DNA of 63,110 nucleotides, counting the filler, from Licmophora abbreviata (taxonomy: Eukaryota), in NCBI GenBank assembly GCA_900291995.1. It is 9 parts of 9 records of this genome, joined end to end, with 100 filler letters (N's around TTAATTAATTAA, not from the genome) between each part and the next. Parts side by side here need not be neighbours in the genome. Positions count along the whole stretch, not along the records: positions 7,819 to 18,754 come from OLMU01001068.1; 8 more parts are not named here. One strand, 5' to 3'. Shown here piece after piece: positions 6,361 through 61,848 of the stretch. The notes under the pieces were generated by a model. It did not search any database and had not been told where the DNA came from. It saw nothing but the letters and a program-made list of their open reading frames with translations. Every line of letters begins with the position of its first letter. Within the stretch, counting starts at the first letter, position 1. The translations under genes were made by a program, and so were the position numbers.

Positions 6361-9043
6361 GCCGATCCCGGACCGGCCTGTTACCGGCGCGGCGGGCCGC
6401 TGACGGTGATCGATTGCAACGTCATGCTGGGCAAGCTGACACCGGCGCATTTTCCCGCCGTGTTCGGCCCGGATGGCGACGCGCCGCTCGATCTGGATCC
6501 GGTGCGTCGGCGCTTTGCCGAGCTGGCCGACACCGTCACGTCAGAGACGGGCGAGGCGCCGCGTAGCCCCGAAGACATGGCCGAAGGCTTCCTGCGCATC
6601 GCCGTCGACAACATGGCCAACGCGATCAAGAAGATCAGCGTGCAGCGCGGCCATGACGTCACGGGCTACACGCTGCAATGTTTCGGCGGGGCGGGCGGGC
6701 AGCATGCCTGTCTCGTGGCCGATGCGCTGGGCATGCGCAAGGTGCTGATCCATCCCCATGCCGGGGTGCTGTCGGCCTATGGCATGGGCCTGGCCGAGAT
6801 ACGCGCCATGCGCGAGGCCCAGATGGATGCCCCCCTGATCCAGATCGACCGTGCCCGTGAGGTCACCGCGACCCTGGCGCGTCGCGCCCGTGGCGAGGTC
6901 GAGGCGCAGGGCGTCACCGATATCGACACCGAAATCCGCGCGCATCTGCGCTATGACGGCTCGCATCAGGCGCTCGAGGTGCCTTTTGCCGACGCCTCCA
7001 CCATGCAGGCCGCCTTCGAGGCGGCGCATCGCCGCCGCTTCGGCTTTCACAGCCCCGAGCGTGCGATCTATTTCGACATGCTCAGCGTCGAGGCCATCGG
7101 CCGCACCGGCCATGCGCCGATCGCCGATCGCCCCTCGGGCGAAGGCCGGCCCGAGGCTCATGTGCCGGTGCATCTTGACGGCGCGCGCCGCGATGTGCCG
7201 CTTTATCATCGCGACGCGCTCGATCCTTCCGCCACCATCACCGGCCCCGCGATCATCACCGAACCCACCGGGACCAACATGGTCGAACCCGGCTGGTCGG
7301 CGCGGATCGACCATATGGGCAATCTGCTGCTGGAACGCACCGGGGCCATGTCCCGCGCGCATGCGGCGGGCACCCGCGCCGATCCGGTGCTGCTCGAGGT
7401 ATTCAACAACCTGTTCATGTCGGTCGCCGATCAGATGGGCGCCACCCTCGCCAATACCTCGTGGTCGGTGAATATCCGCGAGCGGCTGGATTTCTCCTGT
7501 GCGATCTTCGATGCAGAGGGCGATCTGGTGGCCAATGCGCCGCATGTACCGGTGCATCTGGGGTCCATGTCCGACAGCATCAAGACGGTGATGCGCCGCA
7601 ATCCCGATCTGCGGCCCGGCGATGCCTTCATGCTCAATTCGCCCTATCATGGCGGCACGCATCTGCCCGATGTCACCGTGGTGACACCTGTGTTCGTCGA
7701 TGGGGCGCCCGCCTTCTGNNNNNNNNNNNNNNNNNNNNNNNNNNNNNNNNNNNNNNNNNNNNTTAATTAATTAANNNNNNNNNNNNNNNNNNNNNNNNNN
7801 NNNNNNNNNNNNNNNNNNCGTCGATGGGGCGCCCGCCTTCTGGCTGGGCTCGCGGGGGCACCACGCCGATATCGGCGGGCGCACCCCCGGCAGCGCCCCG
7901 CCTGACAGCACCCGGATCGAGGAAGAAGGCGTTCTGATCGACAATTTCAAGCTGGTCGATCAGGGCCGCCTGCGCGAACACGAGGCCGAGGCGATTTTGT
8001 CCTCGGGGCGCTGGCCCTGCCGCAACATCGCGCAGAACATGGCCGATCTCAAAGCCCAGATCGCCGCCAATGAAACCGGGCGGCAGGCCTTGCTGAAGGT
8101 GGTCGAGACCTACGGTCTGGACGTGGTGCAGGCCTATATGGGCCATGTGCAGGACAATGCCGAAGAAAGCGTGCGCCGGGTGATCGACCGCCTGCGCGAT
8201 TGCAGCTTCAGCTATCCGATGGATCACGGCGCAAGGATCGAGGTGGCGATCACCGTCGATCACGCCGCCCGCGCCGCGCGGATCGATTTCACCGGCACCA
8301 GTCCGCAGCATTCCGGCAATTACAACGCGCCCAAATCCATCGCTCGGGCGGTCGTGCTCTATGTGTTCCGTACGCTCGTGGGGGCCGATATTCCGCTCAA
8401 CGAAGGCTGCCTCAAGCCTTTGGAGATCGTGGTGCCCGAAGGCTCCATGCTGAACCCCGCCTATCCCGCCGCCGTGATCGCCGGCAATACCGAGGTCAGT
8501 CAGGCCACCTGCAACGCGCTTTATGGGGCGCTTGGCGTGATGGCGTCGTCTCAGGCGACGATGAACAATTTCATCTGGGGCAATGACACGTTCCAGAATT
8601 ACGAGACGATTGCCGGCGGCACCGGGGCCGGGCCGGGCTTTGACGGGTGCGACGCGGTGCAAAGCCACATGACCAACACCCGCATGACTGATCCCGAAAT
8701 CCTCGAAAAACGCTTTCCCGTCCGCCTTGAAGAGTTCGGCATCCGCTCAGGCTCGGGCGGGGCAGGACAATGGCGCGGCGGCGACGGGGTGCTGCGGCGT
8801 CTGCGCTTTCTGGCGCCAGTCACGGTCACGACGCTCTGCTCTCACCGGAAGGTGCCGCCCTTCGGCGGCGACGGTGGCGCGCCGGGGGCGACAGGGCGCA
8901 ACTGGGTCGAATGGCCTGACGGCACCACCCTTGAGATGCAGGGCAATGACGAGATCGATTTGCCCGCCGGGGCGGCCTTTTGCATGGCCACTCCGGGGGG
9001 TGGTGGCTGGGGTGTGCCGCCTGACCCGGATCAATTGTCCTGA
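6361..9043 (+). CDS. ATP-hydrolysing 5-oxoprolinase / fused hydantoinase A+B (OplA-type); 5'-partial and spans the 7719-7818 gap
   Basis: [39 protein letters not shown] and [11 protein letters not shown] motifs; contig ends overlap by 24 nt across the gap. Confidence 0.92.
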
Positions 9044-9411
9044 TCAATGTGAACAGACCAGTTCAGATCGCCGTGATCTCGCCTCATGGTGGAAGGTCCG
9101 ACTCGTTTTGGCCGCACTCTTCAGGAGATTGTCCCGTCATATGCCGCCTAAAAGGAAGAATGCACAGACCCGCTATGATATCGTCAGCAGTAGCCGTTGT
9201 ATCGCATGTTGGTCCTAACGGAGAGGATCGTGACGAGTGGCCGGATCTTTGATCCGGTTGGTTTTCCTACCCTGTGGCCTCTCCGGGCTGGCTGGCGTCT
9301 TAATCCCCCTCGATCGCCATAAGGCCAATCGAGGATCAACATCGCGGAGCACGAGCATGTGTGGGCCACGATGAGGTATGGTGGTTTATTTCGAGACTGT
9401 AACGAGTGATC

Positions 9412-9438
9412 GGCCGGCGCATCGCGTCGGCCCTTTTT
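9412..9438 (+). terminator. Intrinsic terminator
   Basis: GGCCGGCGC-ATC-GCGTCGGCC stem followed by CTTTTT. Confidence 0.6.
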
Positions 9439-9536
9439 GTGTGATTTCCCGTTTGCATTGACCACGCCCATTGATGCCCGGCGCTCTCCTTCTTACGTCA
9501 TTTGCACATTGATTGACGCAATAAAGGAGCGATCCC

Positions 9537-9824
9537 ATGGACGAGAAACAAGCATATCAGCAGAAACTCGACGCCAAGCTCGACGAATGGAAAGCCGAAA
9601 TTGACAAGTTGCGCGCCAAGGCCGAAGGGGCCAGCGCCGACGCCAAGCTGCAATATCACGACCAGATCGACGATTTGAAGAAACGCCGCGACGAGATGGA
9701 GAAGGAGCTGGAGAAGATCCAGAACGCCAACGAGGCCGCGTGGAACGATCTCAAGGCCGGCGCCGACAAGGCGTGGGAGGCGATGTCCGACGCGATGAAG
9801 GACGCCTGGCGCCGCTTCGGCTGA
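9537..9824 (+). CDS. Small coiled-coil protein (95 aa)
   Basis: AAGGAG RBS; heptad-rich KLDEWKAEIDKL...AWNDLKAGADKAW. Confidence 0.85.
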   Translation: MDEKQAYQQKLDAKLDEWKAEIDKLRAKAEGASADAKLQYHDQIDDLKKRRDEMEKELEKIQNANEAAWNDLKAGADKAWEAMSDAMKDAWRRFG

Positions 9825-9923
9825 CCACGGTCCGGGCAACCCGGCAATCCCGCAACCGGTCAGCCCGATGACGGGACGGCGGGCCAATGGCCCCGCCGTC
9901 CCTCTCGTGCAAGGCGTGCCGCG

Positions 9924-11273
9924 TCAGGCCGCCGAGAACCCCGCGTCCAGCGCGCCGAGGATGCGGTTCACCTCATCCTCGGTGATCGTCAGCGGCGGCG
10001 ACATCAGCACGTTATGCGCGCCCAGTCGCACCATCGCCCCGGCCTCATAGGCGGTCTGATGGATGCGCTTCATGGTGGCTGCGTCCATCGGCGTCTTGGC
10101 GTCCCGGTCGCTGACGATCTCGATCCCGGTCATCAACCCGTGCCCGCCGCGCACATCGCCGATGATGTCGTGCTTTTCCGCCAGCCTGCACACCCCGTCA
10201 TAAAGCTGCGTGCCGCGCGCCGCCGCATTGGTCTTGGTGTCCAGCCTCAGCGTCTCGGACAGGCACGCCACCACCGCCGCCGCACCCACCGGATGCGCCG
10301 AATAGGTATAGCCATGCCAGATCGCCCCCTCGGGTCCGGCGTTCTCGAACACATCTGCCACCTTCTCGCTCAGCAGCGTGGCGCCCACCGGGAAATAGCC
10401 GCTGGTGATGCCCTTGGCACAGGTCATCATGTCGGGCTTCACGCCCCAATGCCGCGCGCCCGACCAGTCGCCGCTGCGCCCGAAACCGGTAATCACCTCG
10501 TCCGAGATCATCAGGATCCCGTATTTGTCACAGATCTCGCGCATCAGCTTCATGAAGCTGGCATCCGGCACGATCACGCCGCCCGCGCCCTGGATCGGCT
10601 CCATGATGAAGGCCGCGATGGTGCTGGGATCCTGGAACTCGATCTCGTCCACCGCCGCCGCTGCGATCTTCTGCGCCAGCAACTCGGGGTCGATCGCCCC
10701 GAACGGGTTGCGATAGGTATAGGGGCTGGGCAGGTGGAAACAGCCCGGCAACAGCGGCTCATAGGTGATCCGGAACCGGTTGTTGCCATTCACGCTGGCG
10801 CCGCCGAAATGCGTCCCGTGATAGCCTTTCTTGAGGCTCAGGAACTTGGTCCGCGTCGGCTCTCCGCGCAGCCGGTGATACTGCCGCGACAGGCGCAGCG
10901 CGGTCTCCACACTGTCCGATCCGCCGCTGGTGAAGAAGGCGCGCACCATGCCATCCTCGGCAAAGAACTCCTGCACCGCATAGGACGCCTCGATCGCGGG
11001 CGGGTTGCTGGTGCCGGCAAAGGCCGAGTAATAGGGCAGCTTCCACAGCTGGTCCGAGATCGCCTGCTTGATCGCGTCGTTCGAATAGCCAAGGTTGACG
11101 CACCACAGACCGCCCACCGCATCGACGACGCTATGCCCGTCGATATCGGTGATCTCGACGCCCTGGGCGCTCTTGATGATCTTGGGCGCGTTCTGATGCG
11201 CCTCCCCGGGACGGCCCATCGGATGCCACAGGTGGCGGGCATTCATCTCTCGCAGGAAATTGTCGTCTTTCAT
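9924..11273 (-). CDS. Class III aminotransferase (omega-amino acid/polyamine type)
   Basis: GGLWCVNLG, GGSDSVE, YHG, EPIQGAGG, DEVITGFGR, AKG and HGYTYSAHP motifs; start set at MKDDNF. Confidence 0.92.
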   Translation of the reverse strand: MKDDNFLREMNARHLWHPMGRPGEAHQNAPKIIKSAQGVEITDIDGHSVVDAVGGLWCVNLGYSNDAIKQAISDQLWKLPYYSAFAGTSNPPAIEASYAVQEFFAEDGMVRAFFTSGGSDSVETALRLSRQYHRLRGEPTRTKFLSLKKGYHGTHFGGASVNGNNRFRITYEPLLPGCFHLPSPYTYRNPFGAIDPELLAQKIAAAAVDEIEFQDPSTIAAFIMEPIQGAGGVIVPDASFMKLMREICDKYGILMISDEVITGFGRSGDWSGARHWGVKPDMMTCAKGITSGYFPVGATLLSEKVADVFENAGPEGAIWHGYTYSAHPVGAAAVVACLSETLRLDTKTNAAARGTQLYDGVCRLAEKHDIIGDVRGGHGLMTGIEIVSDRDAKTPMDAATMKRIHQTAYEAGAMVRLGAHNVLMSPPLTITEDEVNRILGALDAGFSAA

Positions 11274-11386
11274 CGGAAGGCTCCCTCTGGGGCCTGAGTC
11301 GCGGATTTGATCAAACTGTTGCACCCGTGCGGCCCGCCTGTCCAGAGCCCGCGCCGCCCCTGCATGCCGCCCCCGGCCCAAAGCGT

Positions 11387-11431
11387 CGGAAACTTTGCAA
11401 GTTTCCGCCCCGATGTCTTTTCAAGACATCG
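11387..11431. repeat. Twin palindromes (REP-like)
   Basis: CGGAAACTT-TGC-AAGTTTCCG and CGATGTCTT-TTC-AAGACATCG. Confidence 0.7.
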
Positions 11432-11521
11432 CCCCGCTCCCGGCCCACCCCGGATCGCATCATTCCTCTCGCCTTGCCGTCTTCGGGCCTCGCAAGCCGC
11501 CTCCCCCGGTGGAAGCAACGT

Positions 11522-11845
11522 CCCTAAACCCGCCCGCCGTCGCCTGTCCGTCCCCCGGTCAGGCGATAGGGTGACGCAAGCGCGCCTACTGAATGACGTG
11601 ATGACACGGCAGCCATCAAGCGCCCCGAAACAAGGTTATATCGCCATCCGACGCCCAACGTCATCCCCCGTCAATCCCCGCCCCCGGTGGAATAGCGGCC
11701 CTCAACCCGCCCGCCCTCGCCTGTCCGCCCCCCGGGCAGGCGATTGGGTGACGTAAGCCTGCCGACTGAGTGAAGCGACGACACGGCAACCATCAAGCGC
11801 CTCGAAACAAGGGCGTATCGCCAGCCCGCGGACAGGCGAGGGCGG
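11522..11845. mobile_element. Two tandem copies of a ~130-bp MITE/REP-like element
   Basis: Copies at ~11522-11650 and ~11699-11845 (177-bp period). The second has perfect 18-bp terminal inverted repeats: CCGCCCTCGCCTGTCCGC (11711-11728) and GCGGACAGGCGAGGGCGG (11828-11845). Confidence 0.7.
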
Positions 11846-12021
11846 TCTTGTGCTTTGACGTGGCAGGTTTGCGGGGGGGGGTGGTGATGGGTTGCTTTTG
11901 GATCAGTTTGACCGGTGCGGTAACTCTGCTATCGACAGAAAAATGCACGAAATAGGAATTGCAAGTTTCCAAAACCTAACTGGTATTCTCTATTCTGGTG
12001 CGCGGTTCTAGCAGTAAGTGT

Positions 12022-12750
12022 TTAAGATTTTATCGCCTGATTTTTCATACGCAAAACGCGTTCAATGGACGCAAGGCAGGACGGACTAAAAACAAACCTA
12101 GCCACAAAAAGAAGATCGCTAACCTCATGGTACATCGCCTCTGCGTATCCAGCATAAAGCGTACTATAGCCTTCGAGTGCCTTCTTATCGTCTTGTAAAT
12201 GCTCAAAACGTGAAAATCTTAGGTTGTGAGCTGCCTGGTTTCTTATGTTTTTTATGGCTATTAAGTCTCTATAGTCTTCGGCTTGGGACAAGACACCCTT
12301 CTCCTTAAGTTGTTGAATTTTCGCACCAAGCGTCTTGCAAACGGCGTCACCTGGAAGCCTTGACCGAATGACTTCCCCGAGCGCGATCTCCAACAAAGCA
12401 CTCCAGACAAGGACAATGCCACGCGGTGTACCTCGTGCGTTCTCAAGGTTGCCTTCCTGTATCCCTTGCAACATAAGGTTAATGGATTGTTGCGACAGGC
12501 TTATTTCCCTAGGACTGTTCACGGCACTAGAAATCCGGGCGAAACTGCCCTTCGGGTGAATTTTTCCAAACTCGCCAGCTCTCAGACGTTTGTAGAGGCT
12601 TCGACCGTGCGCCTCGGTGTCCGTGGCCATAGCAGTGAACGGTACCTCAATCTTGCAATGATTGAACTTAACGCAACAGTCTAAGCTATCTGGAGCGTCC
12701 GTCTCACTTATTTCACGAGCATACTCGATTTCGTAAGGTATCTTGATCAT
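12022..12750 (-). CDS. Lower-GC protein: phage tail-fibre-assembly-like N-terminal domain plus MtlR/DUF4145-like HEPN domain
   Basis: N-terminal LDCCVKF...PFTA...D.EAHGR.LY...AGEFG.I; C-terminal RGIVLVWSALLE...TLGAKI...DLIAIKNIRNQAAH (Rx4H). Confidence 0.7.
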   Translation of the reverse strand: MIKIPYEIEYAREISETDAPDSLDCCVKFNHCKIEVPFTAMATDTEAHGRSLYKRLRAGEFGKIHPKGSFARISSAVNSPREISLSQQSINLMLQGIQEGNLENARGTPRGIVLVWSALLEIALGEVIRSRLPGDAVCKTLGAKIQQLKEKGVLSQAEDYRDLIAIKNIRNQAAHNLRFSRFEHLQDDKKALEGYSTLYAGYAEAMYHEVSDLLFVARFVFSPSCLASIERVLRMKNQAIKS

Positions 12751-12896
12751 CTCGGGAACATCCTAACCCGATTGTTTTGTTCTCAGAACAATAAAACCAC
12801 TGCAGCCCTAGTCGGTATTAGGCGGATCATGGTATTTGTGTATCTACCTAGCGCTCCTATCGGTTGTGATTGAGCCAACGTCAAACCACCCCCCAA

Positions 12897-13193
12897 TCAC
12901 CCCACCAAAATCCCGCTCACCTTCAGCGCCCGTTGTGCGCTGCCCTCGACCTTGAGCTTGCCGCCCATCACCGCCATCACCGGGTTCTGATCGCCGGACA
13001 GGATCGCCCGGAACACCGCGTCGCTGGCGATCAGCGCCACGTCGGCCTCATCGGCCACATCGCAGGCCCGCGCGCCGGTCTCGTCCAGCATCACCGCCCC
13101 CTCGCCCGAAATCACCAGTTTCGCCGTCCCGCGCAGCGTGCCGACCACCTTGGGCGTCAATGCCTCGACATAGCTCTGGATCAACGCGCTCAT
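12897..13193 (-). CDS. SCP2 sterol-binding domain protein
   Basis: ADVALIASDAVF...NPVMAVMGGKLKVEG motif; GAGG RBS before ATG at 13193. Confidence 0.85.
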   Translation of the reverse strand: MSALIQSYVEALTPKVVGTLRGTAKLVISGEGAVMLDETGARACDVADEADVALIASDAVFRAILSGDQNPVMAVMGGKLKVEGSAQRALKVSGILVG

Positions 13194-13269: not shown

Positions 13270-13348
13270 TTCCGGGGCAACAGGACATCAGCACCCTGGA
13301 ACGCTTCAATCGCTTTGCGGACCAGATGATCCACTCTATGACTGGGTC

Positions 13349-14227
13349 ATGACCTTCGATCAGATCAAAACCTTCCTCTGGGTGGCCCGTCTCGGCGGGT
13401 TTCGTCGCGCGGCAGAGCGGTTGAACCTGTCGCAACCCGCCATCTCCACGCGCATCGCCAAACTGGAACAAGAGCTGCGGGTGCCCTTGTTCGAGCGCGG
13501 CATGGGTGAGTTGATCCTGACCAAACACGGCACATTGCTGTTGTCTTATGTCGAACAGATGCTGTTCGTCGAGGAAGAGATCAAGCAGCGCGTCGCCAAC
13601 CCGTCCGAGACCGAAGGCCTGTTCCGCGTCGGCGCCTCCGAGACGATTGCCCAGGCCTGGTTGCCTGATTTCCTCAAGGCGCTCAGCGAACACTACCCCC
13701 GAGTGAACGTCGATCTCACGGTGGATATCTCTCTCAATCTGCGGTCAGCACTGCTCGAGCGGAAGCTGGACCTTGCCCTTTTGATGGGGCCGGTGTCGGA
13801 ATTTTCGGTGGAGAACGTCGATTTGCCGTCTTTTGATCTGCATTGGTACCGGGCCGCCGCCAACACGCAGACCGACCTCACCCAGATCCCGGTCATTTCA
13901 TATTCCAGCCAGACACGGCCCTACCGCGAACTGATGTCGGAATTGTCGCGCCGGGTGGGGCCGAAATTGCGGGTGTTCACCTCGGCCTCGCTGTCAGCGA
14001 GCCTGAAGATGATCGCGGCGGGAATCGCTGTCGGGCCGTACCCCCGCGCGCTGGCGAATGATTTCCTTGCCTCCGGGCAGATCGTGGAATTCGATCCGGG
14101 GTTCCGGCCAAAGCCGCTGTCGTTCACGGCGTCCTATTTATCGGAACCCCGCAGTTTTCTTGTTGAAAAAAGTGCGGACATGGCGCGTGCGGTGGCGGTC
14201 GACTGGGACAGGTCGCATCCGAAGTAG
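13349..14227 (+). CDS. LysR-family transcriptional regulator
   Basis: MTFDQIKTF...GGFRRAAERLNLSQPAISTRIAKLEQELRVPLFER HTH. Confidence 0.95.
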   Translation: MTFDQIKTFLWVARLGGFRRAAERLNLSQPAISTRIAKLEQELRVPLFERGMGELILTKHGTLLLSYVEQMLFVEEEIKQRVANPSETEGLFRVGASETIAQAWLPDFLKALSEHYPRVNVDLTVDISLNLRSALLERKLDLALLMGPVSEFSVENVDLPSFDLHWYRAAANTQTDLTQIPVISYSSQTRPYRELMSELSRRVGPKLRVFTSASLSASLKMIAAGIAVGPYPRALANDFLASGQIVEFDPGFRPKPLSFTASYLSEPRSFLVEKSADMARAVAVDWDRSHPK

Positions 14228-14241
14228 ATTTAAAAAATCTA
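14225..14241. promoter_or_regulatory. Putative LysR-type operator upstream of the catabolic operon
   Basis: Perfect inverted repeat TAGATTT-AAA-AAATCTA in the AT-rich spacer, overlapping the lysR stop codon. Confidence 0.5.
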
Positions 14242-14319
14242 TCACGACAGATATAAAATGATAATTTGATTGAGGGCCTGACCCCATGTGATGCTGAGTC
14301 GGATGATAGGGGGGCCAGC

Positions 14320-15138
14320 GTGACCACAACCGCAGTTTCACATAACGATCTGATTGGCGCCTCTGCCGCAGATGTCCGTGCCGCGATTCGCAGCGGTGCC
14401 TATACAGGCCACACGGCTGGCCTCGCGGCTGGGAAGCTGCAATGCAACCTTGCCATTCTGCCGGAACAATACGCGCTCGATTTCCTGCGGTTTTGTCTGC
14501 GCAATCCCAAGCCCTGTCCCATTGTGGGCGTCGGTGACAGCGGTGATGCAAAGCTGCCCACACTGGGCCGCGACATCGACATTCGCACGGATGTCGCCCG
14601 GTATCGCGTGTTTCGGGGCGGCACGTTGAGCGAGGAAGTTACCGATATATCGGACGTCTGGACCGCCGATCTGGTGACGGTGGCGCTGGGGTGTTCGTTC
14701 ACCTTTGAAAACGCGCTGGTGCGTCATGGTATTCCCGTGCGCCATCTGGAAACCGGTCGCAACGTGCCGATGTTCAAATCCAACATCGATCTGGTGCCTG
14801 CGGGGCGGTTTGGCGGGCAGATGGTGGTGACCATGCGCCCGATCCCCGCCGAACAGGTTGACGCCACGCGCGAGATCAGCCGCCGTTATCCGCAAGCCCA
14901 TGGCGCGCCCATCGCGGTCGGCGACCCCGCAACCATCGGCATTTCCGATCTGTCCGCCCCTGATTGGGGCGACGCGGTCGAGATCAAGGACGGCGAAATC
15001 CCCGTCTATTGGGCTTGCGGCGTCACCCCGCAAAACGTGCTGCTGGAGGCGGCCCTGCCGATCTGCATCACGCATTCGCCCGGTCACATGCTGATCGCCG
15101 ATGTGGCCGAAGACGCCGAAACAACAATCCTCACGTGA
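14320..15138 (+). CDS. DUF1445 / D-glutamate cyclase-like putative hydro-lyase
   Basis: RNPKPCP, DIRTD, GCSFTFE, VVTMRP, AHGAP, WACGVTPQ and THSPGHM motifs; GTG start inferred. Confidence 0.88.
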   Translation: MTTTAVSHNDLIGASAADVRAAIRSGAYTGHTAGLAAGKLQCNLAILPEQYALDFLRFCLRNPKPCPIVGVGDSGDAKLPTLGRDIDIRTDVARYRVFRGGTLSEEVTDISDVWTADLVTVALGCSFTFENALVRHGIPVRHLETGRNVPMFKSNIDLVPAGRFGGQMVVTMRPIPAEQVDATREISRRYPQAHGAPIAVGDPATIGISDLSAPDWGDAVEIKDGEIPVYWACGVTPQNVLLEAALPICITHSPGHMLIADVAEDAETTILT

Positions 15139-15169
15139 AGACCAAAAAACCAACAAGGAGACGAAGACC

Positions 15170-16201
15170 ATGAAGAAGATGATCCCGATTATCGCCGCAA
15201 CAGCGGCACTGGCGGCGCCGGCTTATGCCGAAAACCTGTCCGTCGTGGGCAGCTGGTCCGGCCTGCCACTGCACAAGGAATACGAAACGCCGTTCTGGTC
15301 CACCACCCTGCCCGAAGCGTCGGGCGGCGCCATCACGGTCGAGCTGACGACCCACAACCAGATGAGCCTTGGCTTGGGTGATATCTATCCGCTGCTGGGA
15401 CAGGGCGTCTACGATGTCGCCATGACCGTGGCCGACTATGCGGTGGCCGACGCGCCCGAGCTTGAAGGGCTTGATGTGCCGCTTGTGGCGCTGACCGCGG
15501 ATGAAGCGCGCGCCATGGTTGACGCGGCCCGCCCCATGGTCTCGGATATTTACCGTGATCGGTTCAACAGCCACGTGCTGGCCATCGCGCCCTATCCTCC
15601 GCAGGTCGTGTTCTGCAACCACGAGATTTCGAGCCTTGGCGATCTCGAAGGCCTCAAAGTGCGCGCATCAGGCCGCATGACCGCCAAACTGCTCGAGGCT
15701 CTGGGTGCCGAGGGCGTGAACGTGTCCTTCGCCGAAGTTCCGGGCGCGTTGCAAAACGGCGTCGTCGATTGCGCGGTCACTGGTGCGGGCTCGGGCTACA
15801 GTGCGGGCTGGTGGGAAGTGTCCACACACCTGCTGCCGATCCCGCTGGGTGGCTGGGACTCTGTGGTCACCGCGATCAACCTGGACAAATGGAACAGCCT
15901 CGATGCCGACATGCAGGCGCTGATCACCAGCGAAATCGCGAGCGGCTTCGAAGACCCCGCCTGGGACAGCGCGCAGAACGCCTTGGTCAACGACATCGCC
16001 TGCCTGACCGGCAACGGCGAATGCCCGGCGGGTGACGCACGGTCCATGACCCTCGTGGAGGTCAGTGACGCCGATTTCGAACGTGCGCGCGAGATCCTCA
16101 CCAGTGAGGTTCTGCCGGAATGGGCAGAGCGCGCGGGCGGCGACTGGGCACAACGCTGGAATGACAGTGTTGGCCAGGTTGTTGGCGTGACAATCAAGTA
16201 A
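15170..16201 (+). CDS. TRAP transporter substrate-binding protein (DctP-like)
   Basis: Signal peptide; DLEGLKVR and EVPGALQNGVVDCA motifs; AAGGAG RBS. Confidence 0.9.
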   Translation: MKKMIPIIAATAALAAPAYAENLSVVGSWSGLPLHKEYETPFWSTTLPEASGGAITVELTTHNQMSLGLGDIYPLLGQGVYDVAMTVADYAVADAPELEGLDVPLVALTADEARAMVDAARPMVSDIYRDRFNSHVLAIAPYPPQVVFCNHEISSLGDLEGLKVRASGRMTAKLLEALGAEGVNVSFAEVPGALQNGVVDCAVTGAGSGYSAGWWEVSTHLLPIPLGGWDSVVTAINLDKWNSLDADMQALITSEIASGFEDPAWDSAQNALVNDIACLTGNGECPAGDARSMTLVEVSDADFERAREILTSEVLPEWAERAGGDWAQRWNDSVGQVVGVTIK

Positions 16202-55270: not shown

Positions 55271-56563
55271 ATGGTCGACATCGCCACCCGCGTCTACAAT
55301 CACCGCTGGAAGATGGACCCGATCGTCCGCTCCCTGATCGACACCGATTTCTACAAGCTGCTGATGTGCCAGTCGGTCTTTCGCAACAAGCCCGACACCA
55401 TCGTCACCTTCAGCCTCATCAACCGCACCAAATCCGTCCGCCTGGCCGAGCTGATCGACGAGGGCGAGCTTCGCGCGCAACTCGATCACATCCGCTCTCT
55501 CTCGCTCAGCCGGGGGGAATCCACATGGCTGCGGGGCAACACCTTCTATGGCCAACGCCAGATGTTCACCCCCGAATTCATGGAATGGTTCGAGGCCCTC
55601 CGCCTGCCGCCCTACCATCTCGAAAAGCGCGACGGCCAATACGAACTCACCTTCGAAGGCAAATGGCCCGAGGTCATGCTGTGGGAAATTCCCGCGCTCT
55701 CCGTCCTGATGGAGCTGCGCGCCCGCGCCGTTCTCGGCCGTATGGAGAAATTCGAACTGCAGGTGCTCTATGCCCGCGCCATGACCAAGCTGTGGGAAAA
55801 GGTCGAACGCCTGCGTCCGCTCCCCGATCTGCGCATCGCTGATTTCGGCACCCGCCGCCGCCATTCCTTCCTCTGGCAGGACTGGTGCGTGCAGGCCATG
55901 CGCGAGGGTCTGGGCGACGGCTTCGTCGGCACCTCCAACTGCCTGATCGCCAAGAACCGCGACCTTGAGGCGATCGGCACCAACGCCCATGAACTGCCCA
56001 TGGTCTATGCCGCCCTGGCCAAAACCGACGCCGAACTGGCGCAGGCCCCCTACAAGGTGCTGGCCGATTGGCACGAAGAGCATTCGGGCAATCTGCGCAT
56101 CATCCTGCCCGATACATACGGCACCGAAGGGTTCTTGCGCGCCGCGCCCGACTGGCTGGCCGGCTGGACAGGCATCCGCATCGATTCCGGCGATCCGGCG
56201 GCCGGCGCCGAGGTGGCGATCCGCTGGTGGCAGGACCGTGGCGAGGATCCCCGCAAGAAGCTCATCATCTTCTCGGATGGTCTGGACGCCGACAAGATCA
56301 TCGAGCTGCACCGCCGCTTCCATGGCCGCGTCAAACTCAGCTTCGGCTGGGGCACGCTGCTGACCAACGATTTCCGCGGCCTGACCGAGGGCGACGCGCT
56401 CGCGCCCTTCTCGCTGGTCTGCAAGGCGGTCGCCGCCGACGGCTACCCCACCGTCAAACTCTCCGACAACCCCAACAAGGCAATGGGACCGGCTGACGAA
56501 GTCGCCCGCTACAAACGCGTCTTCGGCGTGGGCCAGCAGGAGGCGATGGCGGTTGAGGTTTAG
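55271..56563 (+). CDS. pncB: Nicotinate phosphoribosyltransferase
   Basis: [34 protein letters not shown] and VKLSDN motifs. Confidence 0.96.
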
Positions 56564-56590
56564 GGCTTGAAAAACATCGACGTTTAGCGA

Positions 56591-57034
56591 GTGTTTTGCT
56601 ACCTAAAGTTGATGTGTAAACAGTTTCTCGTTCAAATCACGGACTCGGATCTCGTAGAACTCCTTTCCGGGCGGCGCCCGGAACTTGAGATCGCTACATT
56701 GCCTCATGAAGTACGATTGCACCTTGGTTGCGCCCGGGACACTGTTTTTCTCTCCAAGGAATCGGCGCGGCACATAATCCTGAGACACGGCGAGCATATT
56801 TCAAACGATGAACTGAAGCTTTTGCCGTGGCTATTGTTTCATGGCCTCTGGTTGGCGGACACACAGCCAACATATGCAGTCGTATCATGTTTTCATGAGG
56901 GGATTGGATACAAAGCAGTGGTCAAGGTCACAAATGACAGACGTCGAACATACGTCACGACCCTGCACCGAACGGCACGTCGCCAAAACAAGGCGCTTAC
57001 CAAAAAAGGGAAGATATTAAGGAAAGCTCTGTAG
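56591..57034 (+). CDS. Lower-GC PBECR/RelE-like (BECR-fold) putative endoribonuclease
   Basis: VFLSKESARHI..RH and YKAVVKVT..RRRTYVTTLHRT with a basic tail, resembling MuF-associated PBECR domains; start uncertain (56591 or 56612). Confidence 0.6.
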   Translation: MFCYLKLMCKQFLVQITDSDLVELLSGRRPELEIATLPHEVRLHLGCARDTVFLSKESARHIILRHGEHISNDELKLLPWLLFHGLWLADTQPTYAVVSCFHEGIGYKAVVKVTNDRRRTYVTTLHRTARRQNKALTKKGKILRKAL

Positions 57035-57160
57035 TTGGTTGCCATGCGGTGGGGCCTGCCATGAACCCCACAATGCGCTACCACTCGCAAGTGGTGCTAC
57101 GGCCGGCAGAATTTCACCGTGTCGCACATGGCTGATGCGCTGGTATGCGGACCAACTACA
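57030..57160 (+). ncRNA. Putative structured, pseudoknotted RNA directly downstream of the nuclease-like gene
   Basis: Stems TGTAGTTGGT/ACCAACTACA, GCCATG/CATGGC, GTGGGG/CCCCAC, ACCACT/AGTGGT and ACGG/CCGT; loop CTGCC complementary to GGCAG. Confidence 0.55.
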
Positions 57161-57400
57161 CGTTGAATTCTTACCAAAAAATGCTCGCAACGTCAAAGTG
57201 AAAGCGTTGATTTACGTAAGAGAGTCAATAACTTACTAACCCTTTGGCAAGACTCACTTTTTCAAATTCTATCCACAGATTTCAAGAGATATCCACAGTT
57301 TTTACCAAGTAAGCGTTGCAGTATTTTTGTCCCTTGATGCGTAAAATATAAAAACTGCTTTGTCGCAAATACCTAAGTCCCCACCGTAATATGCCGCGAC

Positions 57401-57445
57401 TTAAACGATGTTGGGGGATAACCACATATCCTCCAGTCGGTCACA
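57401..57445 (-). pseudogene. Possible remnant of a parE toxin 5' end
   Basis: Reads DRLEDMW right after the antitoxin stop (ParE N-termini have ADLEDIW-like segments), then stops. Confidence 0.4.
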
Positions 57446-57683
57446 TTGATCGATTACGCATCTCCGCCAGAAACTCATCGAAATCGAAGGGTTCCGGTGG
57501 TCCGCTCGCCTCGCCCTCGGCGATCGCCGCCCGAAGCCGCTCCAGCTTTTCCTCTTCCATTTCCAACATCCGCAACCCCGCACGCACCACGTCGCTGGCC
57601 GAGGCATAGCGCCCACTTTCCACCGCACGGGTTATGAAATCGTTAAAGTGATCGCTCAAAACGACCGAGGTGTTGCGCGCCAT
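57441..57683 (-). CDS. parD: ParD-like ribbon-helix-helix antitoxin (CC2985 family)
   Basis: NTSVVLSDHF...SGRYASASDVVRAGLRMLE...EGEASG...FDFDEF; AAGGAG RBS. Confidence 0.88.
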   Translation of the reverse strand: MARNTSVVLSDHFNDFITRAVESGRYASASDVVRAGLRMLEMEEEKLERLRAAIAEGEASGPPEPFDFDEFLAEMRNRSM

Positions 57684-60858: not shown

Positions 60859-61395
60859 CTATTCCTGCGCAGGTGGCCAGGGCCTTTGCGCTTCGGCTGC
60901 GATCCAGGCGCTGACCCACTCGGGCGCTTCCGGCACGGGCGCCTTTTGCCCCATGACCTCGAAAACCCTGTCAGGGGGCACGATCCCGGCCTTGCCGGTC
61001 ACGGCGATCCGCAAAAGGATGTGGTTGGCGCAGTCTCCATCGGGTTTCCACATCGACTGTTCAATATACACGAAGCGGTCATCCCAGAACACCACGCGCG
61101 ATCGCATCGTTATGCGTTCGAACATGCGAATTCGGCGTCGATACCTGACGGATGCGCCCGCCACGGCGAGCCCCCAGCCCTGCGGTTTGATCGCGTCGAT
61201 CAGCCCGATGCGCTGTGCCAAGGGGATACGCCCCAGATCGAACAGGGTCAGGGTCCGCCCGTTGTTCAATTCCATCCACATGTCGATGTCCCAAGGCAGG
61301 CAGATATGGCTCGAGACATGAACACCGGTCGCTGCAAGGGGCGGATCGTTACGGTGCTTGAACATCTGCCAGAACAGGCGTGGGGCTGGATACAT
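60859..61395 (-). CDS. Acyl-CoA thioesterase (hotdog-fold) family protein
   Basis: PWDIDMWMELNNGR...DLGR and VRYRRR motifs. Confidence 0.85.
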   Translation of the reverse strand: MYPAPRLFWQMFKHRNDPPLAATGVHVSSHICLPWDIDMWMELNNGRTLTLFDLGRIPLAQRIGLIDAIKPQGWGLAVAGASVRYRRRIRMFERITMRSRVVFWDDRFVYIEQSMWKPDGDCANHILLRIAVTGKAGIVPPDRVFEVMGQKAPVPEAPEWVSAWIAAEAQRPWPPAQE

Positions 61396-61596
61396 CTGAA
61401 TGTCCTTTCTTGCCGGGTTTTCTGCCCGCGGCGCCGCCGCGTCAACCGCAACCCGGCGTCAGGCTTGCGCTTTGTCGCTGGCGCGCTTAGGTCTTGNNNN
61501 NNNNNNNNNNNNNNNNNNNNNNNNNNNNNNNNNNNNNNNNTTAATTAATTAANNNNNNNNNNNNNNNNNNNNNNNNNNNNNNNNNNNNNNNNNNNN

Positions 61597-61848
61597 GATG
61601 TGCTTTGGTTCTTCATCATTGCGCATGTCGTGATGAGCTGGCTGATAAACTTCCAGGTGCTGAACCTGCATCAGCAATTCGTGGCGCAGATCTGGTACAT
61701 GCTCAACCGCATCCTCGAGCCGATCTATGGCCCGATCCGGCGGATCTTGCCATCCATGTCCGGTATCGATCTGGCGCCGCTCGTGGCCTTGATCGCGGTC
61801 TATGCAATCCGCATCATCTTGATGAACAATGTGGCGGCCTTTTACTGA
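61597..61848 (+). CDS. YggT-family membrane protein (5'-partial at a gap)
   Basis: MSWLINF...EPIYGPIRRILP..GIDLAP motif. Confidence 0.9.
   Translation, partial: DVLWFFIIAHVVMSWLINFQVLNLHQQFVAQIWYMLNRILEPIYGPIRRILPSMSGIDLAPLVALIAVYAIRIILMNNVAAFY

Follow-up and report, generated by a model that had tools for sequence, protein, structure and literature searches.

A phage tail-fibre chaperone module joined to a HEPN domain: a candidate tail-fibre-triggered RNase in a one-gene foreign islet

The stretch of DNA analysed here (the window: 63,110 nucleotides, filler included, joined from nine parts of the Licmophora abbreviata assembly GCA_900291995.1) carries on its minus strand, at 12022..12750, a 242-amino-acid (aa) open reading frame (ORF) with an ATG start, read by translation of the window. 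Its product, P0001, joins an N-terminal module (the N-module) related to phage tail-fibre assembly chaperones to a C-terminal HEPN domain with a conserved Rx4H motif. On balance we lean, with a little better than even confidence, towards P0001 being a single-protein abortive-infection RNase that is triggered by nascent tail-fibre tips. An earlier note on this DNA, made from the sequence alone, had pointed to the ORF as a candidate anti-phage system; the ORF is indeed present, with the peptide strings that the note quoted at residues 22-66 and 110-175.

Results

The N-terminal module is related to tail-fibre assembly chaperones

The P0001 ORF is not a chance frame, because a word-indexed search finds 31 homologues (E down to 6e-146) and an exhaustive search of 1.84 billion cluster representatives finds 125 of them at E<=1e-3. 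The window ORF is intact, and its counterpart in another strain is 95% identical. In a structure model built from 23 family members (mean predicted local distance difference test score, pLDDT, 92.6; predicted template modelling score, pTM, 0.87), three strands and a helix (residues 8-57) are followed by a linker and then by a helical domain (87-237).

Sequence comparison shows clear homology between residues ~18-66 and the N-terminal module that phage tail-fibre assembly chaperones carry. PHROG families 1795 (E 1.9e-9) and 1141 (E 1.2e-8), both "tail fiber protein", match residues 17-86, and tblastn retrieves 49 phage records (Pseudomonas 21, Aeromonas 15, Escherichia 8, Enterobacteria 3, Microcystis 2); among the 30 phage matches listed, all are confined to residues 4-106, at 33-53% identity. 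Many of the phage matches bear the annotation tail fibre assembly protein or chaperone, and all three plasmid matches that of tail fiber assembly protein, while structure matches of the N-module in BFVD are phage "putative tail protein" or "tail assembly chaperone" entries (E 3e-5 to 9e-4). In an alignment of 38 sequences, P0001 and 37 phage-type proteins, F38, A40, D44, G49, G59 and G62 are invariant, and the shared signature reads IDC.VKF...EVPFTA...D.E.HGR...AGEFG.I. The likeness to tail-fibre chaperones that the earlier note had read from SLDCCVKFNHCKIEVPFTAMATDTEAHGRSLYKRLRAGEFGKIHP (residues 22-66) is thus found again in the PHROG matches, the phage records and the alignment. In Pfam, the C-terminal regions of phiO18P's chaperone and P-EibD ORF-191 belong to Caudo_TAP/Phage_tail_APC and DUF4376; for the segment of these two proteins that matches P0001 there is no Pfam model, and the COT4 chaperone has no Pfam match.

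A census of the family comprises 153 proteins (P0001-P0153), of which 88 have both modules, 60 the N-module only (67-229 aa) and 5 are short HEPN-only pieces. Sixteen of the 35 N-module-only proteins scanned have a C-terminal Phage_tail_APC, Caudo_TAP or DUF4376 domain (12 above Pfam cut-offs), and the two-domain family can therefore be described as a chaperone with its assembly part exchanged for HEPN. P0001 itself has no Caudo_TAP or Phage_tail_APC match at E<=10; in it, the HEPN domain takes the place of the C-terminal trimerisation part of Tfa chaperones. Mean pairwise identity across the family is 55% in the N-module, 44% in HEPN and 23% in the linker (residues 67-94). That a decayed prophage remnant had become fused by chance was considered and rejected, since 88 proteins keep both modules. 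Two proteins, P0126 (229 aa) and P0104 (250 aa), combine the N-module with a C-terminus that is neither a recognisable chaperone domain nor a clear Rx4H HEPN, and may be further effector or adaptor swaps. Among proteins of 425-2000 aa none with an N-module was found, which is weak evidence.

The C-terminal module is a HEPN domain with a conserved Rx4H motif

By VIA-align, residues 86-242 are closest to YggD (3c8g; Z 11.2, root-mean-square deviation (rmsd) 3.3, 133 aligned), followed by a HEPN protein (2hsb, 10.2), MtlR (6kcr, 10.2; 3brj, 10.1), HepS (9oik, 9.6; rmsd 3.5 Å, 134 aligned) and Csm6 (6tug, 9.1), with HEPN-domain proteins in most of the top 30 rows, although helical bundles may attain such Z values through arrangement alone. 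Foldseek of the full model against the PDB returns none at E<=0.001; its top rows are HEPN proteins at E 0.07-0.2, HepS among them. DUF4145 matches 12 of the 23 family members at E<=0.01 and the relative from genome G204 at 28.8 bits, and the other weak matches, in one member each, all belong to the HEPN clan (HepT-like, Cthe_2314 HEPN, DUF3644 and, at E 0.0094, MtlR); the MtlR Pfam model has no match in P0001. Searched against PDB sequences, the family profile finds only Csm6 (E 0.039), with the HEPN motifs of both aligned, and P0001 alone gives only chance-level matches to ribosomal mS26.

The HEPN motif is defined as Rx4-6H with a polar residue following the R (PMC3710099, available text). 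In P0001 it reads R170-N-Q-A-A-H175, of which R170, N171, A174 and H175 are invariant in all 23 aligned family sequences, as are E103 and R110. Among the 82 relatives of at least 195 aa, 77 have R-N-x3-H and 2 more R-[DK]-x3-H, so that Rx4H is kept in 79; of the three without it, one lacks the H and two have other C-termini. From RGIVLVWSALLE...DLIAIKNIRNQAAH, located within residues 110-175, the earlier note had proposed an MtlR/DUF4145-type HEPN domain whose motif ought to be conserved in homologues, and the fold matches, the DUF4145 hits and the motif counts bear this out. The C-terminus of P0001 is, as modelled, an MtlR/HepS-like HEPN fold with conserved Rx4H and a putative metal-independent endoribonuclease activity.

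In phages the N-module lies beside fibre genes and is predicted to dock onto a fibre tip

In COT4 and phiO18P, the gene that matches the N-module lies directly 3' of a tail-fibre gene. More widely, the ORF of 67-203 aa that hosts the match was found at 75 of the 77 viral loci with an N-module-only match, and a same-strand ORF of at least 150 aa ends just upstream in 62 of the 75 (at least 250 aa in 42 of these). Forty-eight of the 62 upstream ORFs were scanned, 14 same-length duplicates being omitted: at E<=1e-8, 25 have a match among the tail or tail-fibre PHROGs, and the other 23 match nothing. Compared by BLASTP over their last 150 residues, 59 of the 62 fall into one single-linkage cluster, the size of which may be inflated by this way of clustering and by the richness of fibres in glycine; the N-module therefore travels with one class of fibre tip.

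For complex prediction, three copies of P0001 residues 1-90 were combined with the C-terminal 180 residues, likewise in three copies, of the fibre of phage locus L007, whose own downstream gene encodes an 83-aa protein that is an N-module alone. The predicted complex scores an interface value (interaction prediction score from aligned errors, ipSAE) of 0.81 (runs 0.80, 0.82 and 0.81), against 0.01 for the best of 3 controls; the runs share at least 42% of contacts and partner pLDDT is at least 75. In calibration, 51 of 78 solved complexes attained the mark, as did 2 of 108 mismatched pairs. On the N-module the predicted interface comprises residues 36-41, 43-46 and 48-49, covering the invariant or near-invariant P37, F38, A40, D44, E46, H48 and G49; on the fibre it comprises residues 564-655, within the conserved tip. 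The model, of the kind that the earlier note had called for, thus predicts that the N-module docks onto a phage fibre tip through the invariant residues of the family.

At L007 (9935-11052), the 83-aa chaperone is followed by a 91-aa ORF and then by a 199-aa ORF that repeats the fibre motif 'AKI.DAN.T' and is possibly a second short fibre.

The two-domain gene is accessory and patchily distributed

Named family members come from Roseobacter, Oceaniovalibus, Paracoccus, Amaricoccus and Cohaesibacter, and relatives are annotated "hypothetical", "Cthe-2314-like HEPN" or 'DNA-binding MltR family transcriptional regulator'. A profile search of 401 genomes sampled across the host's family matches 8, with both modules only in G327, G204 and G123; G001, the nearest genome compared (30% of sampled words common to the window), and its congener have no profile match. 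In all three carriers the two-domain gene is solitary, with unrelated housekeeping genes on either side. The two-domain form also occurs on 3 of the best 80 viral contigs, namely two proviruses (93% and 86% complete) and one fragment, none of which has a second N-module copy. In one of the proviruses, L004, the gene lies between an excisionase-like gene and an integrase, downstream of a CI-like repressor. This is the distribution of an accessory, mobile, often prophage-borne gene rather than of a core function.

The G123 copy (L086/L092, G123:C9:5295-6007, minus strand) is split at about residue 139 into two ORFs of 147 and 135 aa, stop to stop, and is for that reason probably a pseudogene. 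In G237, G053, G335, G351 and G320 (L087-L091), solo HEPN frames of 111-213 aa, stop to stop, encode a related HEPN domain with R-N-x-F-A-H and lack the N-module; these proteins resemble HepS-like solo forms.

The gene occupies a foreign islet of about 1 kb

Table 1. Features of the P0001 locus (window positions).
Feature	Position	Strand	Basis or remark
Whole coding sequence, 242 aa + stop (P0001)	12022..12750	-	ORF call; 31 homologues of 210-279 aa
N-module, residues 1-66; strands 8-16, 22-29, 36-41, helix 47-57	12553..12750	-	PHROG, tblastn, alignment, models, BFVD
Linker, residues 67-86 (about 62-86), no regular secondary structure, lowest pLDDT	12493..12552	-	model, conservation
HEPN domain, residues 87-242, all-helical, MtlR/YggD/HepS-like	12025..12492	-	VIA-align, DUF4145
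Codons of R170-N-Q-A-A-H175, HEPN Rx4H motif	12226..12243	-	translation; family alignment
Putative Shine-Dalgarno-like AGGA tetramer, 10 nt upstream of ATG	12761..12764	-	read directly from sequence
AT-rich islet, ~1.0 kb, P0001 gene only; missing in nearest genome G001	11879..12885	.	GC, G001 comparison
Two copies of 146-nt repeat like REP (repetitive extragenic palindromic) or MITE (miniature inverted-repeat transposable element) sequences, host GC content	11504..11826	.	end ~50 bp before islet left edge

Over 11.9-12.9 kb the GC content falls to 0.44-0.54, from ~0.60-0.70 in the flanks, and the bin 12001-12600 (GC 0.472) is the minimum among the 105 window bins of 600 bases; the AT-richer islet described in the earlier note is the strongest compositional anomaly within the window. 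At third codon positions (GC3), the P0001 gene has 0.49 against 0.62-0.87 in neighbours up to 10 kb away. Two more AT-richer patches (56400-57600 and 61201-61800, GC 0.49-0.54) may be small foreign inserts; a 147-aa ORF at 56591-57031 has a GC3 of 0.54 and no Pfam match.

Compared with G001, window DNA is 91% identical over 9000-11803 and 96%, inverted, over 13308-15200. Homology ends at ~11878 and resumes at ~12885-12897, with ~95 bp of unrelated spacer between in G001, and the islet is therefore ~1.0 kb long with one gene; the empty site in G001 consists of a repeat copy and then the SCP2 gene. The block at 13308-15200 corresponds to G001:C9:72378-74271, where it is inverted and lies ~6-8 kb from the left flank, so that a rearrangement separates close relatives beside the repeats. 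These are the MITE-like repeats of the earlier note, direct copies at 11504-11649 and 11681-11826 that are 82% alike and are accompanied by an 18-nt perfect inverted repeat (11711-11728 / 11828-11845). Several further copies lie in G001 contig C9, some of them beside the points where gene order differs from the window. No integrase or transposase is found in the islet. The islet is an insertion relative to G001, and the P0001 gene is of foreign origin, a lone, horizontally acquired bacterial gene.

Nineteen window ORFs were scanned with Pfam: 15 match metabolic, transport or regulator families (among them hydantoinase/oxoprolinase, class-III aminotransferase, SCP2, LysR, D-glutamate cyclase, a TRAP transporter and 5-oxoprolinase subunits), one matches DUF2848, of unknown function, and three match nothing. 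No phage family is found among the 16 matching ORFs, and PADLOC matches none of 65 window ORFs at E<=1e-5, in keeping with the earlier note, which saw no other phage genes nearby. The P0001 gene is flanked by a class-III aminotransferase gene and an SCP2-family gene, with no tail-fibre gene adjoining and, in the Pfam scan of the neighbours, no mannitol genes; no minimal nucleotidyltransferase (MNT) antitoxin gene is adjacent, the islet holding one gene and its neighbours being unrelated. A promoter scan gives no sigma-70-like site for the P0001 gene, and the two terminator-like sites are both inside the ORF and no more than expected by chance.

Elsewhere, the hydantoinase/oxoprolinase gene appears as two ORFs, 6406-7767 (end of Hydantoinase_A and start of Hydantoinase_B) and 7997-9040 (Hydantoinase_B positions 171-519), which may be a frameshift or an artefact of crude ORF picking.

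Discussion

A proposed tail-fibre-triggered RNase and its rivals

The homology of both modules, the conservation of the motif, the foreign origin and patchy distribution of the gene, its copies in prophage accessory regions and the association of the N-module with a single fibre-tip class are observed, and from these we propose how P0001 could act. The N-module (residues ~1-66), captured from a phage tail-fibre assembly chaperone, would be the sensor, and late in infection it would bind the C-terminal tip of the new tail-fibre protein of phages with this type of chaperone and tip. Tip binding would alter the oligomeric state or the geometry of HEPN, such that R170 and H175 of neighbouring subunits form an active RNase; cellular RNA (perhaps tRNA, by analogy with HepS) would be cleaved, and protein synthesis and phage production would stop. 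Capture of the fibre tip may also disturb fibre assembly directly. A similar chain from fibre sensing through HEPN activation to abortive infection was put forward in the earlier note, and the computations, including the predicted complex, are consistent with it; activation, the RNA target and the protective outcome are what we infer. In a wider form, capture of a fibre-binding chaperone module would give bacteria and prophages a route to immune sensors, the protein competing with the chaperone, poisoning fibre assembly and firing the HEPN RNase, a proposal that we hold tentatively and at somewhat less than an even chance.

Several points weigh against P0001 being such a system. The N-module is not found in any phage or prophage of the host's family, where the 401 genomes gave only the three fusion genes, and the matched phage records come from phages of Pseudomonas, Aeromonas, Escherichia/Enterobacteria and Microcystis. 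The fibre in the predicted complex is a stand-in from an unrelated metagenomic phage, and the prediction was run with each chain in several copies, which the calibration was not, and without an alignment; moreover, close cousins of true partners also pass (10 of 12), so that a pass indicates retained likeness rather than binding in the cell. A trimeric fibre tip has no obvious fit to a HEPN active site that is formed by dimers, and some HEPN domains of the MtlR clade are not catalytic, as the text available of PMC3710099 describes. P0001 itself reaches DUF4145 at E 3.7e-4 with 20.9 bits, under the cut-off of 23.1, and it has no match in NCBIfam and none among the families of PADLOC-DB 2.0.0 at E<=10, a 2023 resource that predates Tha; by the PADLOC scan of the window, the gene also lies outside any defence island. 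Of the two halves that the earlier note wished to see searched separately by structure, residues 86-242 came back as a HEPN fold, but the N-module alone did not find chaperones in the PDB: its best VIA-align match is chromodomain-like (Z 4.0), Foldseek gives E>=0.19, and the N-domains of Mu Tfa and Pam3 gp25 are not recovered, which is no demonstration that the folds differ. No relative of this N-module type has a solved structure, and the analogy with these two proteins is therefore one of architecture, not of homology.

Among other explanations, P0001 could be a prophage weapon against competing phages (a moron for inter-phage exclusion), with an unchanged mechanism and with a chromosomal orphan in the window that may be idle. 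Relatives on two proviruses, one of them between an excisionase-like gene and an integrase, would fit this, as would the foreign composition of the islet; Tha adjoins a gene formerly annotated as excisionase in S. aureus prophages (PMC11087260, available text), and HepS is often prophage-encoded (PMC13043305, available text). The proviruses, having no N-module chaperone, would therefore not trigger their own two-domain copy. However, no phage gene is near the window copy or its counterparts in the three carrier genomes, and the intact ORF, 95% identical in another strain, argues for a maintained function. We regard this explanation as unlikely, and it differs from the reading we favour in who benefits rather than in mechanism. 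It seems less likely still that P0001 is a HEPN toxin that senses no phage, its N-module being a built-in inhibitor or oligomerisation domain (for addiction or a stress response) of incidental chaperone ancestry. HEPN RNases are common in toxin-antitoxin systems (PMC3710099, available text), HEPN-MNT structures are among the fold matches, and the confident single-chain model (pTM 0.87) suggests that the modules pack together. The 1-kb islet, however, has no partner gene, and it is the N-module that is conserved best across the family. Its conserved residues are the ones that true fibre chaperones also keep and that the predicted fibre interface includes, a pattern that would not be expected if only intramolecular contacts mattered.

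The matches to YggD and MtlR, which are the best of the fold search (Z 11.2 to 10.1), could also be taken to mean that P0001 is a non-catalytic MtlR-like regulator, one that would control host genes by binding some host protein or RNA and would play no part in defence; the 'DNA-binding MltR family transcriptional regulator' annotation of one relative and the adjoining LysR regulator and metabolic genes point the same way. Yet Rx4H is kept in 79 of 82 relatives, whereas non-catalytic MtlR members tend to lose the motif (PMC3710099, in the text available), no mannitol operon is found nearby, the gene is foreign and missing in G001 despite flanks that are 91-96% identical, and the N-module is phage-derived, so that we give this idea little credence. 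Least of all would we expect a still-working fibre chaperone whose trimerisation helices have given way to a HEPN-like bundle and whose fibre, that of a prophage, tailocin or gene-transfer agent, is encoded elsewhere. Such a protein would retain the chaperone N-module and the predicted fibre interface, as P0001 does, and the C-terminal parts of chaperones are also helical (PMC9608196, available text). But true chaperone genes follow fibre genes, and no fibre gene is adjacent in the window, in the three family genomes or in L004, the one provirus with flanking genes that could be identified; a structural replacement needs no invariant RNase motif, and P0001 lacks a Caudo_TAP or Phage_tail_APC match. 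We consider it very improbable.

What an anti-phage system senses is usually the hardest question to answer. In P0001 the ancestry of the sensor names a candidate trigger, the conserved tip that one definable fibre class shares, and the proposal is therefore directly testable. If confirmed, it would illustrate one way in which immune sensors come about. On the wider proposal, the trigger of a defence system could be read from sequence, as the fibre tip that travels with the sensor's relatives, and chaperone mimicry might be a general route by which sensors are made. At 242 aa, such a protein would be a small modular sensor-effector, the specificity of which might be predicted, and perhaps exchanged, module by module.

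Comparison with known systems

In its overall organisation, P0001 resembles several known proteins without being identical to any of them. A HEPN-MNT (type VII) toxin-antitoxin pair was considered and set aside, there being no adjacent antitoxin gene. MtlR/YggD and DUF4145 proteins are the best structural matches, and DUF4145 is the only Pfam family reached by members; P0001 differs from MtlR-type regulators in that its gene has no mannitol-operon context. DUF4145 domains are known in fusion with a variety of conflict-related domains (Anantharaman et al. 2013, PMC3710099), but the fusion partners listed in the available text of that paper include no phage chaperone or tail domain, the word 'tail' occurring 0 times in it.

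The N-module brings P0001 close to the Tfa chaperones (Mu Tfa, PDB 5YVQ; Pam3 gp25; PF02413, PF16778), with one large subgroup of which it is shared. In Mu Tfa and Pam3 gp25, according to the available text of PMC9608196, the distal fibre is bound by an N-terminal beta domain, which varies, and trimers form through the C-terminal helices, which are conserved. P0001 has HEPN instead of this trimerisation part, and its gene lies away from any fibre gene. Its identification as a Tfa was rejected for want of a C-terminal assembly domain and of a fibre-gene context.

The closest functional parallels are two HEPN systems that respond to phage tail proteins. HepS (STM14_3211, from the Gifsy-1 prophage of Salmonella Typhimurium; PDB 9oij, 9oik) is, as the available text describes, an inactive tetramer that forms a composite beta-sheet with a nascent tail-tip peptide of J, and on this binding its Rx4H sites open and tRNA anticodon loops are cut; its own prophage escapes by means of a non-triggering J (Sargen et al., Nature 2026, PMC13043305). 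Like HepS, P0001 is a single protein without a partner gene, has an MtlR-like HEPN fold with Rx4H, and belongs to a family that is often prophage-borne and that its host prophages would avoid setting off; direct binding of a new phage tail-end protein with beta-sheet pairing is proven for HepS and predicted for P0001. No HepS chain appears among PDB sequence matches of P0001 or of the family profile at E<=10, and we rejected a HepS homologue by sequence, the similarity being one of fold only. In HepS, moreover, no separate sensor domain exists, and disordered N- and C-termini fold onto the J peptide (PMC13043305, available text), whereas P0001 has a folded chaperone-derived module of ~66 aa whose predicted target is a side tail fibre tip, not J. 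Both Tha-1 and Tha-2, from Staphylococcus aureus prophages, are tail-activated HEPN systems (Rostol et al., Nat Microbiol 2024, PMC11087260); Tha-1 has 301 aa and a C-terminal HEPN, no domain could be recognised in its N-terminal region, and minor tail proteins activate it, as stated in the available text. Compared by description only, Tha shares with P0001 an N-terminal region followed by a C-terminal Rx4H HEPN and, with the L004 relative, a place in the integration and excision region of a prophage, but it is controlled by a dedicated antisense inhibitor, Ith, of which none is seen for P0001.

The principle of a solo HEPN protein activated by tail proteins has thus already been shown for HepS and Tha, and to this extent the architecture is less novel than the earlier note, which did not recognise it as a described system, had suggested; the sensor module and the family do appear to be undescribed. 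Our literature search, with most subscription journals outside its coverage, returned no paper combining tail fiber assembly and HEPN and none describing the fusion, and the homologue lists in the supplementary tables of the HepS paper could contain relatives of P0001. The element that appears to be new is a sensor derived from the fibre chaperone of the phage itself. If our reading is correct, P0001 would join Tha and HepS as a third, independent case of a solo HEPN system that tail proteins activate and, as far as the literature searched shows, would be the first of them with a sensor that can be recognised as a phage chaperone domain acquired by capture.

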